From Candidatus Poribacteria bacterium (GTDB lineage: Bacteria; Poribacteria; WGA-4E; WGA-3G): a DNA stretch of 64,000 nt. The DNA lies in contig CBDANF010000003.1 in NCBI GenBank assembly GCA_965197475.1, positions 3,712,001 to 3,776,000 on the forward strand, read 5' to 3'. This document shows, one piece after another, positions 23,729-37,333 of this stretch. Each line of letters starts with the position of its first letter. Position 1 is the stretch's first letter. A program made the position numbers and the translations under genes. The notes below the pieces were generated by a model that made no database searches, was not told the DNA's origin, and saw only the letters and a list, made by a program, of their open reading frames with translations.

Positions 23729-24523
23729 CTAAGATTCATCATCAAAACTAAAAGATTTACCTGATTCAACAACAAGTTCCCTAAAATAATTTACTGCTAA
23801 TCGCAGCTGCTTTTCGGAATCTGCTCTATCAGAGTGAGTTGAAACGAGGTCAACGGGCATTTTATTGCCTTCCACATTACGTAGGGCAACATAAGCCTTT
23901 AGATATACATCTGGATGACGTTCCATCACTTTCTGCATCAGTGGTGAAACTTCCGCTTCAAACATATTTACATAAATCCGTGCGGTACTAATCTCAGCAC
24001 GGTAACGTTCGCCTATCAAGGGTTGAATATGAGTTTCGAAAATCGCTTTCATCTCGCGTGGTGGACCTGGCATCATCATAATAGTAGATTGCTTATGAGT
24101 AACACTTATGCAGGGTGCCCATCCCGCAGGATTCTGAAGTACTTGTGCTGTTTCTGGCACAGTTGCCATCTTGGTTAGTGCTTCATTAAGCGGATCGTTT
24201 TCAGACATCTCACGGCGTTTTCGGTATTCTGCCATGGTCTCTTCATTCACAACAGGTTTTGTGCCAATGAGTGATGCGACAACAGTCACGGTCATATCAT
24301 CCGGTGTTGGTCCGAGTCCTCCCGTTGTAAGAATAAGTGCTGTTTCACGTTGAATTGCACCATCCAACGCATCAGTCATCTCATCAAAATTATCGCGTAG
24401 CATAGTTACTCGGTGTAATTCCCCACCGTATTGTAGTATCTGCTGTGCAATCCAGTGGGCGTTGGTATCCTGAATTTGTCCGAGGACTAACTCAGTTCCA
24501 ATTGAAAACAGTTCTATCGCCAC
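23729..24523 (-). CDS. CinA-like molybdopterin-binding domain protein (no PncC domain)
   Basis: IGTELVLGQIQDTNAHW, TTGGLGPTPDD and MPGPPREM motifs. Confidence 0.88.
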   Translation of the reverse strand: MAIELFSIGTELVLGQIQDTNAHWIAQQILQYGGELHRVTMLRDNFDEMTDALDGAIQRETALILTTGGLGPTPDDMTVTVVASLIGTKPVVNEETMAEYRKRREMSENDPLNEALTKMATVPETAQVLQNPAGWAPCISVTHKQSTIMMMPGPPREMKAIFETHIQPLIGERYRAEISTARIYVNMFEAEVSPLMQKVMERHPDVYLKAYVALRNVEGNKMPVDLVSTHSDRADSEKQLRLAVNYFRELVVESGKSFSFDDES

Positions 24524-24594: not shown

Positions 24595-24783
24595 TCAAAC
24601 AAGATCGAGCATCTCCGCATATTGTAACACATTTGATATATAGTTGTCTATACAATGACGTAAAACACGCTGCCATTCTTCCGCTTCTGCTACAGTCGTT
24701 GCCCGGAATTCCAATTCGCGTGGTATTTCAGCATATAATTGGTGCGAAAAATCTAAGGTGTCAAGGTATTGTTCACTGGACAT
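24595..24783 (-). pseudogene. Truncated N-terminus of a probable alpha/beta-hydrolase
   Basis: YAEIPRELEFRATTVAEAEEWQRVLR resembles the N-termini of acetylxylan esterase/dienelactone hydrolase-like proteins, then degenerates. Confidence 0.4.
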
Positions 24784-25011
24784 CTTTTTCACTTTTTAGT
24801 AACGCAATAAGTAGTTTTGGACATGATAAAATCTGTGAATTTTAATTTCTCATCTATAAGTGTTTATACAGATAATCTGATTGCAATTCATTTGTATAAT
24901 ACTGCTATTTATAGTTTGTATCAAATGACCCCATGAGTTATACTATTAGTATTCGTTAAACTAACGAGTAGATGTCCTCGGATCCCCGATAATCTATTCA
25001 TGGAGGTCAAT

Positions 25012-25812
25012 ATGAACCGCAAGAAGGATACCGCTTACGGTATCACTCGGCTCGAATCCAAGAATGCCAGAGCCGCGATTATTCAGAAGATTTCAGCAGA
25101 CTTTAATCTAATGCCTCTCGTTGCTGAAGCCTACTATAAACAGATTTCCACCTACTTTGAACAACACGCCGATGTGCACCTGACATCAGGGCAAATCTGC
25201 TACGAGGCAGTCGCCGCAGAGGAACCCGCAGGTAAACATATCGCTTTAGCGAAAAAAGTTTCCTGTCGGCTAACTCTCAATGACACAAACGCCGATCTTG
25301 AAGTCTTAGCGAATTATGGTCTCGCAGGACTCAGACGGCATCGGATCCTCCGATTGACCCAAGAAGCTTATGACCAAGATGCCTTACTGAGCTACGAGGA
25401 TTTAGCTGTATTATTAACCACCAGTCCTGCTACAGTCAAACGCGACATTCGACACTTGAAGCAGGATGGGTATTTCGTTATGACGCGCGGGACGAAACAC
25501 GACATGGGCCCCGGCACTTCTCATAAAACCCAGGTCCTGGAGTTATATTTCAAAGCCTATACCTTCACCGAAATCGAGAAAAAGACGAACCACAGCGAAC
25601 GAGCTGTCTACCGCTACTTGAAAGACTTTACACAAGTCGCTACGCTCCATCATCAAGGCTTTCCTAACGCACAGATACGCCTGATCACCCATCTATCTGA
25701 CCGGTTGATCCGCGAGTATCTCTCACTCTATGAGGAATACCAACACACAGATCGCATGACCCAACTCCTTCACCCAGAACCTGAGGACACAAAAAAGGGG
25801 GACCTCTCATGA
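25012..25812 (+). CDS. DUF1670-like multi-HTH protein A
   Basis: GGAGG RBS; EAYDQDALLSYEDLAVLL, TRGTKHDMGPGTSHK and NHSERAVYRY motifs. Confidence 0.8.
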   Translation: MNRKKDTAYGITRLESKNARAAIIQKISADFNLMPLVAEAYYKQISTYFEQHADVHLTSGQICYEAVAAEEPAGKHIALAKKVSCRLTLNDTNADLEVLANYGLAGLRRHRILRLTQEAYDQDALLSYEDLAVLLTTSPATVKRDIRHLKQDGYFVMTRGTKHDMGPGTSHKTQVLELYFKAYTFTEIEKKTNHSERAVYRYLKDFTQVATLHHQGFPNAQIRLITHLSDRLIREYLSLYEEYQHTDRMTQLLHPEPEDTKKGDLS

Positions 25813-26693
25813 GCAAACCTCTAACCCGCACGCAAATCAACGAGAAGAAATTCAGACGCATCAACGATAAGTCCCTACGACAGTTGCTCATTCACCGCTT
25901 TCTCAATGACTATGGTTATGACAAAGGCGAAGTCACTGCCACCGCCATTGTTGATGATATTCTTAAGACCGTTGAAGACTATTTCGTGATTACCCTTCCT
26001 TTGGAGAAACTCGCCACCGGCGATCAACTCCCGGATGAGCGTTTCTTGAGTTATGGACAACTCGTTTGGATGGCCGTCCCTATTGAAGAGCATCCAGAAA
26101 GAGGAAAGTCCATCGTCAAAACCCGCATGAAACCCGTCATCCTGACTTACCTCGCCGCAGAGGATATTGAATCCTTTCGCAACGGTTTCACCTCCCGGCA
26201 ATTGCGGATCAATCGCTTGGTCCGCTGGTGTCATCAAGCTTATGACCAAGGGGCATTATTGACACAACTCGACTTGGCAGTTTTGCTCAATGTCTGCGAT
26301 GCCGTTGTCTGTGATTATGTTAATGAATGGCAAAAAACCACTGGAGAACTCTTGCCCACCCGTGGCAATATCCATGACTTATCGGGGGCTATTACCCATA
26401 AGAAAGAGATCATAACCCTCTATCTTCAAGGACATCTCACCCCCAGGATTGCCGCAAAGACCAAACACTCTAAGGAGGCAGTTGACCGATACATTCGCGA
26501 TTATGAGAGCGTCAAAGTCGTTCGGAAAGCAACCGCAGATATTGATAAAATCTCACAGATTACACGACTTTCTAAACGCGTCATCTCTCAATATCTCGAC
26601 CTCATACCGCAGCACCAACTCCAAGCCATAGATGCAGACCTTGCCAATTCAGACTCAAACGATGAAGCCACTCACCAAGGAGAAGCCCAATGA
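25809..26693 (+). CDS. DUF1670-like multi-HTH protein B (paralog of A)
   Basis: ATGA overlap with A; QAYDQGALLTQLDLAVLL, TRGNIHDLSGAITHK and KHSKEAVDRY motifs. Confidence 0.8.
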   Translation: MSKPLTRTQINEKKFRRINDKSLRQLLIHRFLNDYGYDKGEVTATAIVDDILKTVEDYFVITLPLEKLATGDQLPDERFLSYGQLVWMAVPIEEHPERGKSIVKTRMKPVILTYLAAEDIESFRNGFTSRQLRINRLVRWCHQAYDQGALLTQLDLAVLLNVCDAVVCDYVNEWQKTTGELLPTRGNIHDLSGAITHKKEIITLYLQGHLTPRIAAKTKHSKEAVDRYIRDYESVKVVRKATADIDKISQITRLSKRVISQYLDLIPQHQLQAIDADLANSDSNDEATHQGEAQ

Positions 26694-26760
26694 GACCCTA
26701 ATCCTATGTTCCCGACGAACTTTACTTCGCAAAACCGGGGCAGGTGCCTTGAAAATATGG

Positions 26761-26789
26761 TTGACAACCGCTACTGGTTTTGCTATACT
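26761..26789 (+). promoter_or_regulatory. Near-consensus sigma70 promoter inside the right end of the element
   Basis: TTGACA-17 nt-TATACT with extended -10 TGn. Confidence 0.75.
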
Positions 26790-26795
26790 TTAGAC

Positions 26796-26921
26796 ACGTT
26801 TATCGCTAAACGCATCATTTCTCAAAGAGGATGCTCGCGATCCCAACGCAACCCACTCATCAACGATCGCTGGGAAGCCAATAAACATCAGCCTTCCAGC
26901 TATCCTATGGTCATTTGATAC
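26796..26921 (+). ncRNA. Putative structured non-coding RNA (~125 nt)
   Basis: Consecutive stems CGTTTA/TAAACG, GCATC..CTC/GAG.GATGC, GCGATC/GATCGC and GCTGGGAAGC/GCCTTCCAGC immediately after the promoter; no RBS or convincing ORF. Confidence 0.45.
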
Positions 26922-27064
26922 TATTTAAGAAACGACACGATATCTTCACTTATATTACCACAATAATGGAAGAATGGCGGCGTCTAATTTCGTTATAAAA
27001 GGTTTATATCTCTATAACAGATTGTAAAAATTCAACATATAGTAATCTCAATATAGACTCTTAT

Positions 27065-28270
27065 CTACAAAGTAATGCCCAACTCCTTTGCAATTGTATA
27101 AACATCTTTATCACCACGTCCAGATAGGCATACTACGATGGTTTTGCCGTCACCAAGTTTCGGCGCAAGTTCACGTAGGTACGCAATGGCATGCGCGGAT
27201 TCTAATGCTGGAATGATTCCCTCAGTCTCCGACAACAACTGAAATCCTTCCACGGCCTCTGTATCGGTAATCGGCACATATTCCGCTCTACCAATTTCTC
27301 GATAATAACTGTGTTCCGGACCTACACCAGGGTAATCTAACCCCGCGGAAATCGAATGGGCAGGTGTTATCTGTCCATCATCTTCTTGCAATAGATAGCA
27401 CTTTGCACCGTGAAAAACACCAACACTTCCTGCAATGAGCGGTGCGGCGTGCCGTCCGCTACGGATACTCTCACCTGCTGCTTCAACACCGATAAGGCGA
27501 ACAGACTCGTCATGATAAAATGGATGGAACATACCGAGAGAATTACTGCCACCGCCAACACAGGCAACGACACAATCCGGTAAGATACCCTCCTGTTCTA
27601 AAATTTGTGCTTTCGCTTCTTCGCCGATAACAGCTTGGAAGTCTCTAACGATCATGGGGTAAGGATGCGCCCCGACAACTGAGCCGAGAAGCAAATATGT
27701 TGTGCGGACATTTGTAACCCAATCTCGGAAACAGGCATTGATGGCATCTTTGAGCGTACGTGAACCTGAATTGATAGGCACAACTTTTGTTCCCATCAAC
27801 CGCATGCGGAATACGTTGAGTGCTTGTCGTTCTATATCCTCTTCACCCATATAGACTTCGCATTCCATATCAAACTTAGCAGCGACGGTTGCTGTCGCTA
27901 CGCCGTGTTGCCCCGCACCGGTCTCGGCGATGATACGTTTTTTGCCCATCCACCGTGCAAGCAATATCTGTCCGATTGCACTGTTGATCTTGTGTGCGCC
28001 TGTATGGTTCAGGTCTTCTCTTTTAAGGTATATTTTTGCGCCACCGAGGGTTTCAGTTAACCGTTCTGCATAGTAGAGCGGATTTGGTCTCCCGACATAT
28101 TCACTGAGGTAATACCGAAATTCCTTTTGAAAATCGGAATTATCTTTGAGTGTTGTGTATGCCTCTTCCAATTCTAAAAGTGCGGGCATAAGAGTTTCGG
28201 GGACATATCTTCCACCGAACTGTCCGAAGTGTCCTGTTGCATCAGGAAGTTGTTGCATGTAGTTCTCCAT
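27065..28270 (-). CDS. trpB: Tryptophan synthase beta chain
   Basis: [23 protein letters not shown] and [15 protein letters not shown] motifs. Confidence 0.97.
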
Positions 28271-29608: not shown

Positions 29609-30439
29609 TTAAGACAAGTTTTTTTGCTCAAATTCCACAGGTGTCAAATACCCTAACGCAGAGTGAGGGCGTTTGTGATTATACACTTGTGTAATAAAAT
29701 GCCCAATGCGGGCTCTCGCTTCGTGGATGTCCTCATAGTCGTTGAGATGAACTTCTTCTTCCTTGAGCGTGCGGATAAGTCTTTCAGCATATCCGTTCTC
29801 CCAAGGACACCCTCTCCGGGCGACTGAAATCTCAATCCCATGATGCCTAAGCAGTGAGATGGACGCATTTGAAAGATATTGAACGCCTTGATCAGAATGA
29901 TGGATCTCTGGGACATTTTGACATAATGCTGTCTCCAAAGGTTTCAACGTTAGAGATTGCGTCAAGTGTTGACTGATATACCACCCTCTGATCATGCGAG
30001 TGAAGACATCCATGAGCAGACAAACATAGATAAAGTGTCCTTTGAGGCGGACGTAGGTGATATCGCCCACCCAGACCTGATCACATCGGGAGACATCAAG
30101 GTTTTCAAGGCGATTGCTCCAGGGACGCACACCCGCAACGGATGTCGTGGTTTGACAGACACGCTTGACAGAAACCGAGAGGTTGACGGACTTCATCAAT
30201 CGGGCAACACGTTTATACCCGATGGTGTATCCGTTACGCACCAACAACTGTGTGGGACGCCTATATCCGTATGTTGGATATAGCAAAGATAACGTCTCTA
30301 TTTCATCCTGGAGGCCCGCTTCACACGGGGCCTGCTTGGAGTGATAATAGAGGTTGCTTCGGTTGAAACCGAGTGTCTCACATATCTGCCGAACCGAAAA
30401 GTCTGTCCGTAATGCCGTAACCATTTCTCGTTGCTCCAT
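29609..30439 (-). CDS. IS3 transposase OrfB (rve DDE)
   Basis: WVGDITY, HHSDQGVQY and ENGYAERLIRTLKEE motifs. Confidence 0.92.
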   Translation of the reverse strand: MEQREMVTALRTDFSVRQICETLGFNRSNLYYHSKQAPCEAGLQDEIETLSLLYPTYGYRRPTQLLVRNGYTIGYKRVARLMKSVNLSVSVKRVCQTTTSVAGVRPWSNRLENLDVSRCDQVWVGDITYVRLKGHFIYVCLLMDVFTRMIRGWYISQHLTQSLTLKPLETALCQNVPEIHHSDQGVQYLSNASISLLRHHGIEISVARRGCPWENGYAERLIRTLKEEEVHLNDYEDIHEARARIGHFITQVYNHKRPHSALGYLTPVEFEQKNLS

Positions 30440-30444
30440 CGGGG

Positions 30445-30735
30445 TTAGCTCAAGTAAGTTGAGGCTTTTTTTTGGATGTCAAGTGCCAAGGTCAACCGCC
30501 CAACGAGTTGCTCAAGTTGGGCGATCCGCTCCGCAGAGGCATCAGACTGTTTATCAGCGGGTTCAAAGAGGGTCGCCGCTTTTTCAAGAAGCTGTCGCTT
30601 CCACTTTGAAAGTTGTTCATCGATGAGGTTATGTCGCCGACACACTTCTGCTTGGGAACTTTCAACGCTGAGAGCCTCAAGAACAACTTCGGCTTTAAAC
30701 TCGGGGGTGAAGTTTCTTCGTTTTCGTTTCGCCAT
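30445..30735 (-). CDS. IS3 transposase OrfA (HTH)
   Basis: RRNFTPEFKAEVV...LSKWKRQ; ends in IQKKA at the frameshift window. Confidence 0.9.
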   Translation of the reverse strand: MAKRKRRNFTPEFKAEVVLEALSVESSQAEVCRRHNLIDEQLSKWKRQLLEKAATLFEPADKQSDASAERIAQLEQLVGRLTLALDIQKKASTYLS

Positions 30736-30792: not shown

Positions 30793-31540
30793 CCGAATTT
30801 CCGATGGCAGTACAAGAACATGTCTGTGGCAGTCTCCGCTGGGCGTTTCCAAACCTTGTCAGCTATAGTCGGTTTGTGCAACTTGCCAAAGAGGTTTTGA
30901 TGCCGTTGTCTATTTATCTGAACACTCGTTTCGGTGAATGTAGTGGAACTTCCTTTATTGGCTCAACGACACTTCCAGTTTGCCACAATCGTCGGATTTC
31001 AACGCATCGTGTCTTTGCTGATGGGGCAGAGCGATCCAAAACCTCTATGGGGTGGTTCTATGGGTTCAAACTGCATCTCGTTATCAACGATCAAGGCGAT
31101 CTTCTGTCTGCTATGGTGACACCCGGAAACACGGATGACCGGCAACCCGTTCCACAGTTGACCAAAGGACTATTTGGTAAACTTTATGCTGATAAAGGAT
31201 ATATCAACAAAAAACTGCGAAATGAACTGCGGGAAGGTGGTGTGTCACTCGTTTACAAAGTGCGCAAGAACATGAAGTCAGAACCCTTGTCTGATATTGA
31301 CGCAGAACTCCTGAAAAAACGGATGCTCATTGAGTCAGTAAATAAAGAACTCAAAAGCCAGACAGAAATCCAACATACACGGCACAGAAGTTATGCTAAT
31401 TTTCAGGTGAATACAGTTGCTGCCTTGATCGCATATACCAATCTGAAGAAGAAACCTTCACTCAAACGCAAAGAACTTAAGGAAATTAAATATCCGTTTC
31501 CAATGATAAGTAACCACTAAACTATTTATCAAACTCACGT
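30793..31540 (+). pseudogene. 5'-truncated IS982-family transposase with right IR
   Basis: FPNLVSYSRFV, GWFYGFKLHLV, LYADKGYI and RMLIESV motifs; first catalytic Asp reads G (FIGST); end TTATCAAACTCACGT. Confidence 0.85.
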
Positions 31541-31579: not shown

Positions 31580-34500
31580 CTATAACACATCGCGTAGGAA
31601 ACGTGCAGTGTGCGATTCCCCAACCTTGGCGACCTCTTCAGGTGTGTCCATCGCAATAAGATATCCACCGTCATCGCTGCCCTCTGGACCCAAATCGATA
31701 ACCCAGTCAGCCGATTTGATAACATCCATGTTGTGTTCCACAGCGACAATCGTATTACCAGCGTCAACAAGTTTATTGAGCACGTTAAGTAGTTTTTGGA
31801 CATCATCAAAGTGCAATCCGGTCGTCGGTTCATCCATGATATAGAGGGTAGTTCCGGTTTGACGACGGGCAAGTTCCTTCGCAAGTTTGACGCGCTGCGC
31901 CTCACCGCCTGATAACGTTGTCGCAGCTTGTCCCAACTGGATATAGTCCAAACCGACATCCGCTAATGTTTGGAGTGGACGTTTGATGCGATTGATATTG
32001 CTGAATAGGTCAAGTGCTTCCAACACTGTCATCTGTAATACTTCGGCAATGTTTTTGCCCTTGTAACGAACTTCAAGTGTTTCAGCATTATACCCTGTGC
32101 TGTTACAGTTCTCGCAAGGTATCCATACGTCAGGAAGGAAGTGCATCTCCACGCGATTAAAACGGTGCCCATCACATACTTCGCACTGCCCGTAAGAAAG
32201 GTTAAAACTGAAGCGTCCGCGGTTAAATCCGCGAAGTTTAGCATCCGGTAACTCGGCAAACATTTCACGAATTTTGGTGAATAGATCAGTATAGGTTGCA
32301 GGATTTGAACGAGGTGTCTCACCAATCGGTTTCTGATCAACGTGGATAACCCGTTCGATTGAACTTGTTCCTTGGATACTATCGTACTTGGCTGTTCCAT
32401 ACGGATTGTTTGTTTGTTCGCTTCCTTTTCTGATGGAGCGTCGAGTTTCCAAAGCCGGTCTTAGTGTGCCTTCAATAAGTGAACTCTTTCCGCACCCTGA
32501 AACACCTGTAACGCATGTGAGTGTTCCATACGGGATTTCAATGTCTATGTTTTTAAGGTTGTTTGTCTTCGCACCGAACAACTTCAGCCATTTTCCTGAG
32601 CCTTTGCGCCGAACAGCTGGCACAGGGATTTGCATCTCATTAGAGAGATAGGCTTGTGTCACCCCCTTAACTTGAGTGTTAAGTGTTGTTTCACCTGAGT
32701 CCCCTGCAGTCTTTGTAAGTGTTGGGGAGGGATAGGATATAGGTTCCGAATCGGTAAAGGCAGTAGGCGAACCGGTAGCGACTATTTCACCCCCCTGCTT
32801 ACCCGCTTTAGGACCGAAATCAATGATATGGTCTGCGGCTAAAATAGTATCCCGATCGTGTTCAACCACAAGCACGCTATTGCCAATATCGCGTAAATCC
32901 TTCATCGCTAAAATCAACCGTTCTTGATCGCGTGGGTGCAAACCGATACTCGGTTCATCAAGGATGTAAGTTACGCCAGTGAGTCCAGTGCCAAGTTGGC
33001 TCGCGAGACGTATTCTGCGGATTTCTCCGCCAGAGAGCGTTGGGGCAGGTCTGTCCAATCCAAGATATCCGAGTCCGATGTCCTCTAAGAAATTGAGACG
33101 AATCTGAATTTGACGTAGCAGCTGCGCTTCAAACTCAGGCGAAGTATGGGCGTGGAGTGTAGGATGCGTTGCTCTTGAGGTAGATACATCCCTTACCTGC
33201 TCTCTGGCTGCTATTGCTGCTTGCGCACCCGCGCTTGTTGTGAGGTGTTTTTCTATTGCTTTCACGCGCGTGCCGAAAAATTTTATGATCTCCGAAATTG
33301 ACATCGCCATCAATTCAGCAATGGTTTTATCAGAGAATTTGACGTTACGGGGGAATTCATCCAACCGAGTACCCTGGCAGGCTGTACATATTTTATGTCT
33401 TACCGAATCAGATCCACCGAGACCATCACAGTAGCCGCATGCCCCTAACTTATTGTTAAATGAGAAGTGTCGAGGAGTCAGCTGCGGAAAATTCCGACCG
33501 CATTTTGAACACATCGCATGTTCACTGAAGAAATATCTGTTTGGTTTCCCACTATCTTTTTTCTCCTCTATAATAACAAAGCCTTCACTTTCTATCAGTG
33601 CTAATTCTACTGCTTCTGTGAAACGGCTCTTTTCGTCATCAGCAAGTTGAACGCGGTCAATAACAAGAAAGACTTCATGGCGACGCCGTTTGTGGATTTC
33701 TGGTGTTTCATCAAGTCGACAAATCTCACCGTCAATTTGGACACGCGCGAAACCTCTTTTTTGCAACCTGCGAAACGCATCGGCATAGTCCTCATTCCCT
33801 TTCAAGCCTGGGGTACGGTCCGCATCTATTACCACTTCAAAATCAGTCATTCGAGAAAGGTTATCAGAGATTTTCTGTATATTTTGAATACGAAAATTTG
33901 TAAGTGGTGACAAAATATCTACTCTCTTTTCTGGTACGAGTTGGTAAACATGCTCAACTATTTCCTGTGCGGTCTGAGGGCGGACCTCTATTTGGCAATC
34001 AGGGCAGTGCGGTTGCCCCCATCTTGCATAAAGGGTTCGTAGACCTTCATGGATTTCGGTAATCGTTGCCACTGTGGAGCGCGGGTTTTGGCTGGGACTT
34101 GAATGCGATATTGCAATCGCTGGCGACAACCCTTCAATCTTTGAGACTTTAGGCTTTTCCATAGTTCCAATAAATTGGCGAGCATAAGTGCTAAGCGTCT
34201 CAATATAACGACGTTGTCCTTCAGCATAAATGGTATCAAGCGCAAGCGATGTTTTGCCAGACCCGCTAACGCCAGTAAATGCGGTTAACCGTTGATGCGG
34301 AATTTCAATATCAATGCTTTTCAGATTGTTTTCTTGCGCACCACGTACGAGAATGGATTTAGAGGTTACAGTGTCCGTTTCATCAAGAACGGGCTGCGGC
34401 ACGATACCGTTTTCTGTGATATTGTGTTTTGTGTCTAAGGACTTCCAGAGATCGAATTCACCATGGAGGGCTTGCCCCGTATAGGATTCTGGTATATCTT

Positions 34501-37333
34501 TAACCTCTTCAGGCGTGCCTATAGCGACAATTTCACCGCCACCGATACCACCTTCAGGACCTAAGTCAATAAGATAATCCGCTGAATTGACTACCTCAAG
34601 ATTGTGTTCAACCACGACCACAGTGTTACCATCGTCAACCAAGCGATGGAGAATGGTCAAAAGTTTGTTTACATCGTCAAAGTGTAGACCAGTTGTGGGT
34701 TCATCAAGTATGTAGAGCGTTTTGCCAGTGCTTCGTTTAGAAAGTTCCTTTGAGAGTTTAATCCGTTGTGCTTCACCACCGGAAAGCGTAGGCGCAGGTT
34801 GTCCAAGTTTGATATATTCCAAACCAACATCGTGAAGTAATTGTAATCCTCTCGCAATTTTGGGGAGATCGGAGAAATGGGCAAGGGCAGTTTCAATATC
34901 CATTTCAAGCACATCGGAAATACTTTTCTCTTTATATTTAATGGTGAGCGTTTCGTTGTTATAACGTTTTCCGTTACACACATCGCATTCTACCCAAACG
35001 TCTGCAAGCAATCCCATGTCAACTTTTTTAGCACCATTGCCGGTGCATGCTTCACATCTTCCACCGGGAACGTTGAAACTAAATCGTCCCGGTTTATATC
35101 CGCGTAGTTTGGCATCAGGCAAGTTCGTATAGAAGGCTCGGATTGCATCAAATACCTTTGTATAGGTTGCGGGATTAGAGCGGGGTGTCCGTCCGATGGG
35201 TGCCATGTTAATGTTAATAATTTTATCAATGACATCGGGAACGGGGACGGTTTCGTCTTCAATGATACCTTGAATTCTGTCGTAGTCACCTGGCACAGTT
35301 TTCGCCTTCATTAGGTCTCGTGCAAGTGCGCTGTAGAGAATATCATGGATGAGCGAACTTTTTCCTGAACCGCTCACACCTGTCACACAGCACAAAGTAC
35401 CAACTGGGATTTTAGGACTAATCTCTTTTAGGTTGTTTTGACGCGCGTTGCAGATTTGCACCCACCGATCGCCTATAGATCGTCGCGACTCAGGGTGCAC
35501 AATCTCTTTTTCACCTCGTAGATATTCGCCTGTAAGAGAGTCGCACTCTTTTATGAATTGGTCAGGTGTTCCCATACCGGTAATCTGCCCGCCTTTTATA
35601 CCAGCACCCGGTCCAAAATCAACTAACCAATCGGCAACTAACATAGTCGCTTCATCGTGTTCAACGACGATAACAGTATTGCCTTGATCACGGAGGTTTA
35701 AAAGTGTTTTCAGCAAGCCGGCATGGTCACGAGGATGTAATCCGATGCTTGGTTCATCAAGCACATAAGTCACATCGCGAAGTCCAGCACCGACCTGGCT
35801 TGCCAAGCGGATTCGTTGTGCTTCGCCACCGGACAGTGTCGGCGCGGAACGCGACAAGGTGAGATATCCTAATCCAACGTCCATGAGAAAACCCATGCGT
35901 GATCGGATCTCTTTTAACAGTTCTGACGCGATGAAAGCCTCGCGATCCGGAAGTTCAACAGTATTGAAAAAGGTTGTTGCGTCCTGAATTGACATATCAA
36001 GGACATTAGTGATGTTCATTCCATCTATGGTGGTGGCTTTAACCCCTTCTTTCAAGCGAGTTCCATCACATGCCTGGCACGGCATCTTGACAAAATAATC
36101 GGGAAGGTTAGAGTCTCCATCTTCGTTAACGTCTAACCAGAGAAATCGTTGCTCATGTGCAGGAATCAGTCCTTGAAATCTGCCGCGAAACTTTTTCCGC
36201 CGCCGCCTGCTATCTCTTGAAGGCTGGTAAAAAGTGAGCACAGTGTCACCAGTGCCATATAGGATGGCATGCTGCTGCTCATGTGTCAAATCCTTCCAAG
36301 CGGTTTTTAAACTGAACTTAAGATGTGATGCAAGGGTACGGAGGACAATTTTCTCTTCAGGCCCCGGTTTTTCCCACAAAAGTATCGCGCCTTCAAGGAC
36401 AGGTAGCGTTTCATCTACGATGATTAGCCGTGGAGAAATTGCCATTTGCAGACCTAATCCTCGACAATGCTCACACATACCGTAAGGACTGTTAAAGGAA
36501 AAGTGGCGAGGTTCAGGCACATCGTAACTAATTTGGCAGTTTGTGCAGGCATACTGTCTACTAAATAGGAGATCTTCGCCATTCGAAGCCGTTCGTGAGG
36601 TATCACTATCTGAAGACACAACATTCACAATTAGACTATCATCTCCAATTGTAAGCGCAGTTTCTACGGCATCAGCAACGCGACTATGTATATCGTCTTT
36701 AATAATGATTCTATCGACGACAATATCAATGTTGTGGGTTTGATTCGGGTTGAGCGAGATGTCTGAACTGATTTCGTGTACTTCACCATCAATTCGAGCG
36801 CGAACAAAGCCCATCTTGCGAGCGTCTGATAACTCTTTACGATATTCTCCGCGCCTACCTCTCACGATAGGTGCTAAAATCATGAGGCGTGTACGAGGGG
36901 GGAAACTGATTATCCGTGTAACGATGTCGGCGATCGTTTGTGAACCTACCTCTTGTCCACATTCAAGGCAGTTGAATTGTCCTGCGCGGGCAAATAAAAC
37001 GCGAAGGTAATCGTATATTTCGGTTACGGTCGCAACCGTTGAGCGGGGGTTATGTCCTGTGGAACCTTGGTCAATGGCAATTGATGGTGACAAACCGACT
37101 ATCTTATCAACTTCGGCTTTACCGAGTTGTCCCAAAAATTGTCGTGCATAAGCGGAGAGCGATTCTATATATCGCCTTTGTCCTTCGGCATACACGGTAT
37201 CAATAGCAAGTGAGGATTTGCCTGAACCACTGACCCCAGTGAAAACAATCAACTTATCTTTCGGTAATTGGATATCAATATTTTTTAGGTTATGTTCTCT
37301 TGCGCCGTGTATGTCAATTGACGCTTCTGCCAT
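31580..37333 (-). CDS. uvrA: Excinuclease ABC subunit A, double-length (two fused UvrA units)
   Basis: Four Walker A (GVSGSGKSS x2, [18 protein letters not shown]) and four LSGGE motifs; 1917 aa. Confidence 0.95.

Follow-up and report, generated by a model that had tools for sequence, protein, structure and literature searches.

A mobile element with a tandem DUF1670 gene pair occupies the ends of sorting-domain genes in Candidatus Poribacteria and is probably an insertion sequence of an undescribed family

We analysed a 64,000-nt stretch of DNA (hereafter, the window) from the Candidatus Poribacteria assembly GCA_965197475.1 (contig CBDANF010000003.1, positions 3,712,001-3,776,000, or G000:C3:3712001-3776000). 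The window contains a 2,014-bp element between whose ends nothing is encoded besides two overlapping genes of the DUF1670 family (PF07900), here called orfA and orfB. This element is mobile, multi-copy and recently active, and most of its copies adjoin the ends of genes whose products carry the sorting domain of the type IX secretion system (T9SS). In our assessment it is probably an autonomous insertion sequence (IS) of an undescribed family, in which OrfA and OrfB are the transposition proteins and, probably, the enzyme itself.

Mobility is evident from the genome to which the window belongs (5.70 Mb in 3 contigs, completeness 92.7%, contamination 7.0%). An initial annotation, made from the sequence alone, had noted a perfect 13-bp inverted repeat around the two genes and had proposed a mobile element carrying only a DUF1670 pair. 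The repeat is present, at 24918-24930 and 26909-26921, and the BLASTN search for further copies that the annotation had called for, made with positions 24918-26921 against the own genome, returned 18 full-length copies and 2 deletion derivatives. Four of the full-length copies, including that in the window, are 100% identical; five are 99.5-99.95% and nine are 92.2-97.3% identical. One derivative lacks positions 68-301, and the other, of 432 bp, consists of both ends only (1-286 and 1854-2004). The 13-mer is exclusive to the copy ends: it occurs 38 times in the 5.70-Mb genome, always at the ends of these 20 copies. Likewise, all 39 PF07900 matches in the genome lie inside copies of the element. 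With these 20 copies, the empty sites described below and ends that recur across phyla, the proposal of a mobile element is borne out.

Assembled reads add to this picture. In two DNA runs, the summed contig depth goes from hundreds to tens of thousands at the bin edges 24905 and 26925. Contigs from these runs link 24945 with 26776, and other comparable pairs of positions, and thus indicate further short derivatives. The contigs of two RNA-library runs, both from one study, extend over 24915-26926 with 0-1 differences and leave the flanking bins 24703-24904 uncovered; this is compatible with transcription, but may also reflect carry-over of DNA from a many-copy element.

The copies have also exchanged sequence, to judge from their synonymous divergence. 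Relative to the window copy, this divergence is 0.44 in orfA and 0.05 in orfB for the copy at C2:37436, and 0.01 and 0.26, respectively, for that at C3:3438316. The discordance between the two genes implies that both copies are mosaics, produced by recombination between subfamilies. The left flanks of the copies are unrelated to one another, apart from one duplicated flank: the copies at C2:1160548 and C3:845190 have 3 kb of left flank in common at 98% identity and different right flanks, a pattern that indicates segmental duplication or inter-copy recombination.

The features of the element and its ends, in window coordinates, are as follows.

24911..26924, + strand: the insertion sequence, 2,014 bp; ends 5'-ATAG...CTAT-3', with the same boundaries in 18 full-length copies
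24911..24930, + strand: left terminal inverted repeat, ATAG TTTG TATCAAATGACC
26909..26924, + strand: right terminal inverted repeat, GGTCATTTGATACTAT
24909-24910 and 26925..26926, + strand: left and right copies of a 2-bp repeat (TT)
24905..24910, - strand: relic of the original target, with AAA TAG on the minus strand as the final Lys codon and stop of a gene for a T9SS sorting-domain protein
26694..26908, + strand: 3' non-coding region, 215 bp, variable between genera except for the last ~85 bp

The terminal repeats read ATAG[TTTG]TATCAAATGACC and ATAGTATCAAATGACC; the left repeat and the reverse complement of the right end match at 16 of 16 positions, with one 4-nt indel. In a junction alignment of all own copies, conservation extends past the 13-mer by 7 bp on the left (ATAGTTT) and by 3 bp on the right (TAT). 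Farther out, TT is constant on both sides, and the bases to the left of it differ even among identical copies (TAC, TAT, CAC). Therefore, the element spans 24911-26924; the 13-bp repeat does not bracket it as tightly as had been thought, since the element begins 7 bp to the left of 24918 and ends 3 bp to the right of 26921. We also examined 60 external copies, that is, the loci among 80 fetched in which both ends were found by regular expression (20 were dropped). TT begins the right flank in 20/20 own and 59/60 external copies, and ends the left flank in 18/20 own and 59/60 external copies, both own misses being offset artefacts in copies with indels. The flanking TT may be a 2-bp duplication, or a TT carried by the element and inserted bluntly; the sequence fits either.

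Longer duplications were considered and rejected. A 6-bp direct repeat, TATTTA, is present at 24906-24911 and 26922-26927 as first reported, but it is not a target duplication: on the left TATTT belongs to the host, on the right TAT belongs to the element, and TT alone is repeated. Indeed, in young copies that are identical, TACTT or CACTT stands on the left but the right side is always TATTT, which contradicts both a 6-bp TATTTA and a 5-bp TAYTT duplication. A contrast in composition between the interior and its flanks, also reported at the outset, is real, with a guanine-plus-cytosine content of 0.47-0.49 within the element and 0.33-0.38 in the adjoining intergenic stretches; it is uninformative, as neighbouring genes range from 0.42 to 0.50.

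The target of insertion became apparent from the right flanks. In nearly all copies the first 270-390 bp of this flank are mutually 65-78% identical, far below the identity of the elements, and their opposite strand codes for C-termini of the type ...AAYWDGxNxxGExVASGVYFYTLTAGDFTATRKMLILK. All four of the flank-encoded C-termini that were tested match TIGR04183, the T9SS type-A sorting domain, at 34.0-44.0 bits (cut-off 23). Gene ends of this kind number 53 in the own genome; the element occupies 18 of them, and the junction is always ...AAA TAG/TATC (junctions are marked with a slash). Using a hidden Markov model (HMM) of the sorting domain, built from 33 unoccupied own ends only and with E <=0.001 counted as positive, we found that the right flanks of 18/20 own and 50/60 external copies are positive, with the element in one orientation. 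The 10 external negatives comprise 5 sites of the type of repetitive extragenic palindromes (REP), 1 contig end and 4 others.

The left flanks show where in the gene the element enters. In 18/20 own and 49/60 external copies, the left flank is the reverse complement of a stop codon plus YTT, in the forms TTACTT (24), TTATTT (15), CTATTT (12), CTACTT (10) and TCACTT (6). Read in the orientation of the gene, this signature is AAR followed by TAA, TAG or TGA, that is, the original last Lys codon and stop. Because the left flank keeps this codon and stop, insertion must take place inside the last Lys codon or immediately ahead of it. The right end of the element supplies A plus TAG, so that AAA-TAG is rebuilt, the gene still ends in ...K-stop and the protein is unchanged. 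The pre-insertion consensus reconstructed from 50 external sites, TTcaCnGCaACnCGgAAaATGnTgATtcTGAA/aTAA, shows no visible difference from 35 unoccupied ends, which implies that many free targets remain. One clade (in genomes G029 and G020) targets a REP-like palindrome instead of sorting-domain ends.

Empty counterparts of occupied sites could be found for both kinds of target. The locus of the copy in G010 is uninterrupted, at base level, in G037, G039 and G032: the empty form reads GAAATAGTATCATGC... and the occupied form GAA/ATAG..element..CTAT/AAATA[AACACA]GTATTATGC..., one extra 6-bp indel in the flank being needed to relate them. Adjacent match coordinates imply that the same locus is also uninterrupted in G005, G006, G002, G012 and G046. 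In the G029/G020 clade, relatives at 77% identity sit in the loop of the REP-like palindrome AAACCGAGTTTTTTCTTCAAAACTCGGTTT. G029 contains 74 instances of this palindrome and G020 36-37, frequently arrayed at a spacing of ~190-490 bp (e.g., L062-L078). Beside its 74 empty palindromes G029 has 4 occupied ones, and adding the element and one TT to the empty form gives the occupied form, GAGTTTT[TT]ATAG...CTAT[TT]CTTC. These REP-type sites also contradict a TA duplication, a model that was tried and that predicts an empty site other than the palindrome found 74 times in G029. For the left flank of the window copy, the orthologous sequence in G002 continues without a break into a sorting-domain gene end (...acagcTATTT/CAAAATCAACATC...).

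Other comparisons gave no empty site. Among 66 copies in other genomes, none had one in the own genome, where a single weak pair lay 2.9 kb apart. For the own copies L002 and L003, none was found in five relatives; only the side with the sorting domain is syntenic, and the other flank is rearranged or repetitive. A search for an element remnant at the unoccupied site C2:537457 gave nothing significant.

These observations bear on the idea that the copies are host regulator genes, duplicated or gene-converted beside sorting-domain genes, and that no transposable element is involved. The consistent position beside one gene family would be expected if so, and so would the single, intact and conserved copies that G003 and G010 hold at the same locus (G003:C1:2600478-2602497 and G010:C102:68617-70661). 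The precise empty sites already contradict it. In addition, the boundaries are sharp and identical while the left flanks are unrelated; the sorting-domain DNA is only 65-78% identical between sites, against 92-100% for the element; there are insertions in REP-like palindromes and at other sites outside sorting-domain ends; deletion derivatives keep both ends; and the distribution is patchy. We therefore consider this explanation extremely improbable. Separately, the 432-bp derivative of the own genome (G000:C3:94120-94551) lies at that same G003/G010 locus, and the far-side flanks of the three differ. The shared locus may reflect common ancestry or repeated use of one hot site.

The two genes that the element carries are the following.

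25000..25812, + strand: orfA, DUF1670 protein of 270 aa; PF07900 E 4e-62
25809..26693, + strand: orfB, DUF1670 paralog of 294 aa, whose ATG overlaps the orfA stop (ATGA); PF07900 E 1.2e-61
25791..25797, + strand: A_AAA_AAG heptamer, in register with orfA and followed by G5; candidate recoding site for OrfAB

The assignment to DUF1670 made in the initial annotation is firmly supported: against a cut-off of 25 bits, orfA scores 209.9 bits (profile positions 3-220 of 220) and orfB 208.3 bits (31-220 of 220). That the two are overlapping paralogs is equally clear, since their products align by BLASTP at 35% identity over 192 residues (E 1e-27), with the shared motifs that had been pointed out visible in the alignment. 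Among the own full-length copies (n=18), 14 have the canonical open reading frames (ORFs) of 270 and 294 aa. The non-canonical copies are one with 269 and 294 aa, one with an extended orfA, one with orfA and orfB fused (564 aa) and two with a broken orfA. The orfB gene is intact in 19/19 own copies that hold it. Ratios of nonsynonymous to synonymous divergence (dN/dS) are 0.09-0.15 for orfA and 0.03-0.08 for orfB in 18 comparisons with diverged own copies and relatives, two Ignavibacteria comparisons being saturated and giving no value. Both genes are under purifying selection.

The overlap between the genes resembles a programmed recoding site. In IS1, IS3 and other elements, motifs of the A_AAA_AAG type bring about frameshifting or slippage of the transcript. 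Here, orfB lies in the -1 frame relative to orfA and its frame is open from 25785. An A6G-A9 run falls within the overlap in 16/20 diverse elements; the four misses are one element that is already fused, one aberrant element and two without a run. In Poribacteria orfB is in the -1 frame, while other phyla have A7-A9 with orfB in the +1 frame. In the own copy at C3:685919, orfA and orfB are fused through one extra G in the A_AAA_AAG tract, which is also the place of the fusion in L138. The KK encoded at the slippery site is 83-88% conserved across the family. A search for longer proteins returned 5 relatives only, all of them DUF1670-DUF1670 fusions of 529-559 aa; relatives of 930-950 aa consist of three DUF1670 units and no other domain. 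It is because of the A-run in 16/20 overlaps, the natural fusions and the conserved KK that we regard the pair as working as a unit. A fused OrfAB would then be produced by -1 frameshifting or slippage at A_AAA_AAG.

What the proteins do is less readily established. In Pfam searches, several helix-turn-helix (HTH) models match the products of orfA and orfB, whereas no match was found to rve or another DDE domain, DEDD_Tnp_IS110/Transposase_20, resolvase, Phage_integrase or HUH (E up to 1 for DDE and IS110). NCBIfam, including the NCBI transposase models, gave nothing beyond a weak IS1 HTH match (E 0.056), the fused and longer DUF1670 forms contain no known transposase domain, and the Protein Atlas returned DUF1670 clusters only. 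A first structural model of OrfA, from 49 close sequences, reached a predicted local distance difference test score (pLDDT) of 65 and its fold search was uninformative. A second, from 103 diverse sequences, reached a pLDDT of 87.5 and a predicted template-modelling score of 0.63. Its N-terminal helices lead into a beta hairpin (65-72, 86-92) and a long helix (96-125), after which come three HTH-like helical units, in agreement with the roughly three HTHs initially expected in each protein; there is no alpha/beta catalytic domain. Prediction of the OrfA+OrfB complex scored 0.16 against a mark of 0.32, which speaks neither for nor against pairing. In the 103-sequence alignment R163 alone is invariant, and conservation reaches at least 90% at G64, G78, D99, R118, Q126, L130, E133, D134, T145, G164, G170, H175, H198, Y206, F210 and Y240; most of these residues recur in OrfB, which has L in place of E133.

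Several results weigh against the enzymatic role that we favour. No catalytic fold or motif was found for OrfA or OrfB, the model being made of helices and one hairpin. Foldseek comparison of the OrfA model with the PDB gave 0 matches at E <=0.001, the best being the winged-helix arrays of SelB and MntR, and a profile search of PDB sequences gave nothing below E 0.37. Several conserved residues belong to motifs of the HTH recognition-helix type (HS..V.RY) and may serve in DNA binding only. No circle junction or excision product was seen among the contigs examined, in which uncovered parts are uninformative. Lastly, the single copies of G003 and G010 at one locus would also fit a regulator useful to the host.

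On this evidence, the most serious alternative is that the element is mobile while the DUF1670 pair only binds DNA (for recognition of the ends, target choice or regulation), and that the pair recruits an unlinked enzyme to cut and join, be it a host recombinase or nuclease or another IS's transposase. The resemblance of the proteins to HTH/winged-helix arrays without a known catalytic fold suits this alternative, as does the presence in the genome of classical DDE transposases (e.g., at a distance of 3-4 kb, an IS3-family pair and a DDE_Tnp_1_3 gene); sharp differences in copy number between related genomes could mirror the presence or absence of a helper. If there were such a helper, however, it would have to be near-universal, given that the same architecture recurs in distant phyla and that the family reaches an archaeon. 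Nor does any other element of the genome have the same or similar ends: allowing <=3 mismatches, the 16-nt end occurs at 35 other places in the own genome, against 59-105 for five shuffled patterns, i.e., at background level. A master element with the same ends and a known transposase was likewise not found in the own genome, whose completeness of 92.7% makes this absence less than absolute. In addition, the putative OrfAB recoding and the strong purifying selection on both ORFs are what transposases themselves show, by comparison with IS1 and IS3. We judge recruitment of a helper to be rather unlikely, though clearly the strongest competitor. The choice posed by the initial annotation, between the A/B pair as an unrecognised enzyme and a non-autonomous element with accessory genes, is narrowed only in part, since no catalytic fold or motif was found. 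Its observation that DDE, HUH, serine and tyrosine recombinase signatures are not recognisable holds throughout Pfam, NCBIfam and the PDB fold search.

If the pair is itself the enzyme of an autonomous IS, as we favour, a more specific proposal can be made, to which we give slightly less than an even chance. DUF1670 would be a new class of transposase or site-specific recombinase, almost all-helical and with multiple HTHs, acting as OrfA, OrfB and recoded OrfAB; its fold would be none of those already described for such catalysis (DDE/RNase H, DEDD, HUH, serine, tyrosine, Cas1). Its target would be a coding motif of ~20-30 bp, the end of T9SS sorting-domain genes, at which it would insert with a 2-bp stagger and rebuild the last codon and stop. 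In our favoured interpretation as a whole, the multi-HTH proteins would bind the ends of the element and the conserved DNA that encodes ...(R/K)KM(L/V)I(L/R)K-stop; the OrfAB fusion would be made at A_AAA_AAG(G5), by -1 frameshifting or slippage; and OrfAB, or an A/B hetero-oligomer, would break and join DNA through a new kind of active site. The active-site candidates are R163, which is invariant, and D99, E133, D134, H175, H198, Y206 and Y240, which are nearly so. The spread over several phyla and to the archaeon Methanosarcina acetivorans argues against a lineage-specific host enzyme.

A further alternative is suggested by the 215-bp 3' region, namely that a non-coding RNA transcribed from it guides target choice or catalysis, with the DUF1670 proteins as partners, in the manner of the bridge RNAs that IS110-type elements encode. 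Insertion that is specific for site and orientation into diverged repeats could be explained in this way, and the 4-nt insert in the left repeat and the sizeable non-coding ends are reminiscent of IS110/IS1111; the RNA-library contigs, moreover, cover the 3' end up to 26926. On the other hand, an Rfam search at E up to 1, made without a dedicated search for structure, gave no match for the region, and it is unconserved between genera except for the terminal ~85 bp: only the terminal part can be aligned to the 77%-identical relatives. Any likeness of the region to the target is at chance level. Specifically, a sorting-domain-like segment was considered in a 70-aa ORF (26706-26918), to which the Pfam search assigned no family, and was rejected, its best E being 0.26 while 200 shuffles reach 8e-4. 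A guide RNA therefore seems to us very improbable.

Related elements are found well beyond the own genome, as tandem DUF1670 pairs with recognisable ends. They occur in Candidatus Poribacteria metagenome-assembled genomes (MAGs), often in many copies per genome, and at 61-68% identity in MAGs of Gemmatimonadota, Ignavibacteria, KSB1, Bacteroidetes, Phycisphaeraceae and Pseudomonadota. The right end, GGTCATTTGATACTAT, is identical in the aligned Poribacteria, Ignavibacteria, Bacteroidetes, KSB1 and Pseudomonadota-MAG elements examined; the left end is kept in all own copies and appears in other phyla as A[AT]AGTTT..CA[AT]ATGACC. One Ignavibacteriales MAG has four copies of ~1.86 kb each, 99.3-99.8% identical, with the same gene pair, right end, left-end pattern and target. 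The survey of DUF1670-pair loci that had been suggested at the outset yielded the same ends and gene pair across phyla and, among fused or longer forms, none with a known transposase domain. Three outcomes named beforehand as contrary to a mobile element, namely the same genes in synteny without an empty site, homologous pairs lacking inverted repeats, and full-length copies with a known transposase that is deleted here, were all absent.

Within the phylum the distribution is patchy. PF07900 matches 41/151 Poribacteria genomes sampled, with 1 to at least 18 matches each, and 10/38 genomes even within the genus. Copy number ranges from 1 in G003 and G010 to at least 7 in G044 and 18 here, and some genomes have at least 9 copies where close relatives have none. 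The profile also matches Methanosarcina acetivorans, included as a control genome, and collects 1,762 clusters at 50% identity (E <=0.001). Many homologs, some at ~30-40% identity, lie on contigs of 1.5-2.9 kb, and distant metagenomic relatives form tandem pairs on contigs of 1.8-2.2 kb, some with inverted repeats ~1.75 kb apart. One source names a distant member 'transposase', while the other names are 'hypothetical', 'biotin operon repressor' and 'response regulator'. A tblastn search of plasmids with orfA gave no match.

We compared the element with known systems. Like IS3 (and IS1), it is small and flanked by a short repeat, has terminal inverted repeats, and carries two ORFs in 0/-1 frames, the upstream one coding for an HTH-rich protein, with an in-register A_AAA_AAG in their overlap. 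It differs from IS3 in that there is no rve/DDE domain, the two ORFs are paralogous members of a single DNA-binding family, the ends are ATAG...CTAT and the flanking repeat is 2 bp rather than 3-5 bp. Like IS110/IS1111, it inserts site- and orientation-specifically into repeats that include REP-like palindromes, with little or no duplication, and has non-coding ends; unlike them, it has clear terminal inverted repeats, no DEDD transposase domain and no matching RNA family. The 2-bp flanking repeat at a fixed dinucleotide recalls IS630/Tc1-mariner, as do tandem HTH units with a conserved basic linker, a role that TRG.KHD.GPG.SHK might play here. In this case, however, the dinucleotide is TT and not TA, a DDE/D domain is missing and the target specificity goes far beyond a dinucleotide.

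Use of a conserved or abundant safe site that leaves the host gene intact is familiar from IS1397/ISKpn1, which target REPs, and from Tn7, whose attTn7 lies downstream of glmS. Those systems use DDE transposases or TnsABC+D, whereas the present element rebuilds the last codon and stop of its target. Finally, IS607-type serine recombinases employ a 2-bp core common to element and target, and joining the ends of the present element would give CTAT-TT-ATAG, in which the dinucleotide is the centre of an inverted repeat; here, by contrast, there is no resolvase-type Pfam domain and the model has no alpha/beta catalytic domain. The element lacks the defining catalytic domain of each IS family compared. 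The literature searched contained no paper about DUF1670/PF07900 or an element of this kind, which may already be listed as an unclassified IS.

If our interpretation is correct, the large orphan family DUF1670 acquires a function, in a widespread mobile element. Should the pair prove to be the enzyme, it would add a class of transposase chemistry, and one so compact and so specific for site and orientation would be of interest for genome engineering. The logic of integration is unusual as well, in that DNA coding for a secretion signal serves as a safe site present many times (53 ends here) and the gene that is entered is repaired. For the evolution of Poribacteria genomes, the element appears as an agent of reshaping, the window copy being located at a break of synteny.

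The window copy lies between a cinA-like gene (23729-24523) and a trpB-like gene (27065-28270). An empty site between these two genes had been anticipated; in fact, they are adjacent in none of the 30 relatives searched, and are far apart where they are on one contig (e.g., in G003, G006 and G017). The present right flank contains no sorting domain by HMM, while the left flank once adjoined a sorting-domain gene. It follows that the window copy marks a rearrangement, explained most simply by recombination between two copies. In the DNA run X1, a contig of 2,152 nt ends with 169 letters that equal 26925-27093 without differences, and its other 1,983 letters match nothing in the window; this contig may represent a trpB-side allele without a copy of the element.

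The surrounding region is rich in mobile DNA. An IS3-type pair with HTH_Tnp_1 and rve domains lies at 29609-30735 on the - strand (rve match in 29609-30439), and a DDE_Tnp_1_3 transposase gene at 30804-31520 on the + strand. Elsewhere on the same contig, to the left of the copy at 3207241, a sequence of ~540 bp (L002:4380-4922) recurs at 78% identity in more than 20 places in G006 (G006:C1) and is probably another repeated, mobile element. Farther along the window, at 31580-37333 on the - strand, an ORF of 1,917 aa with two UvrA interaction-domain stretches and ABC ATPase matches along its length looks like a tandem fusion of two UvrA-like units.

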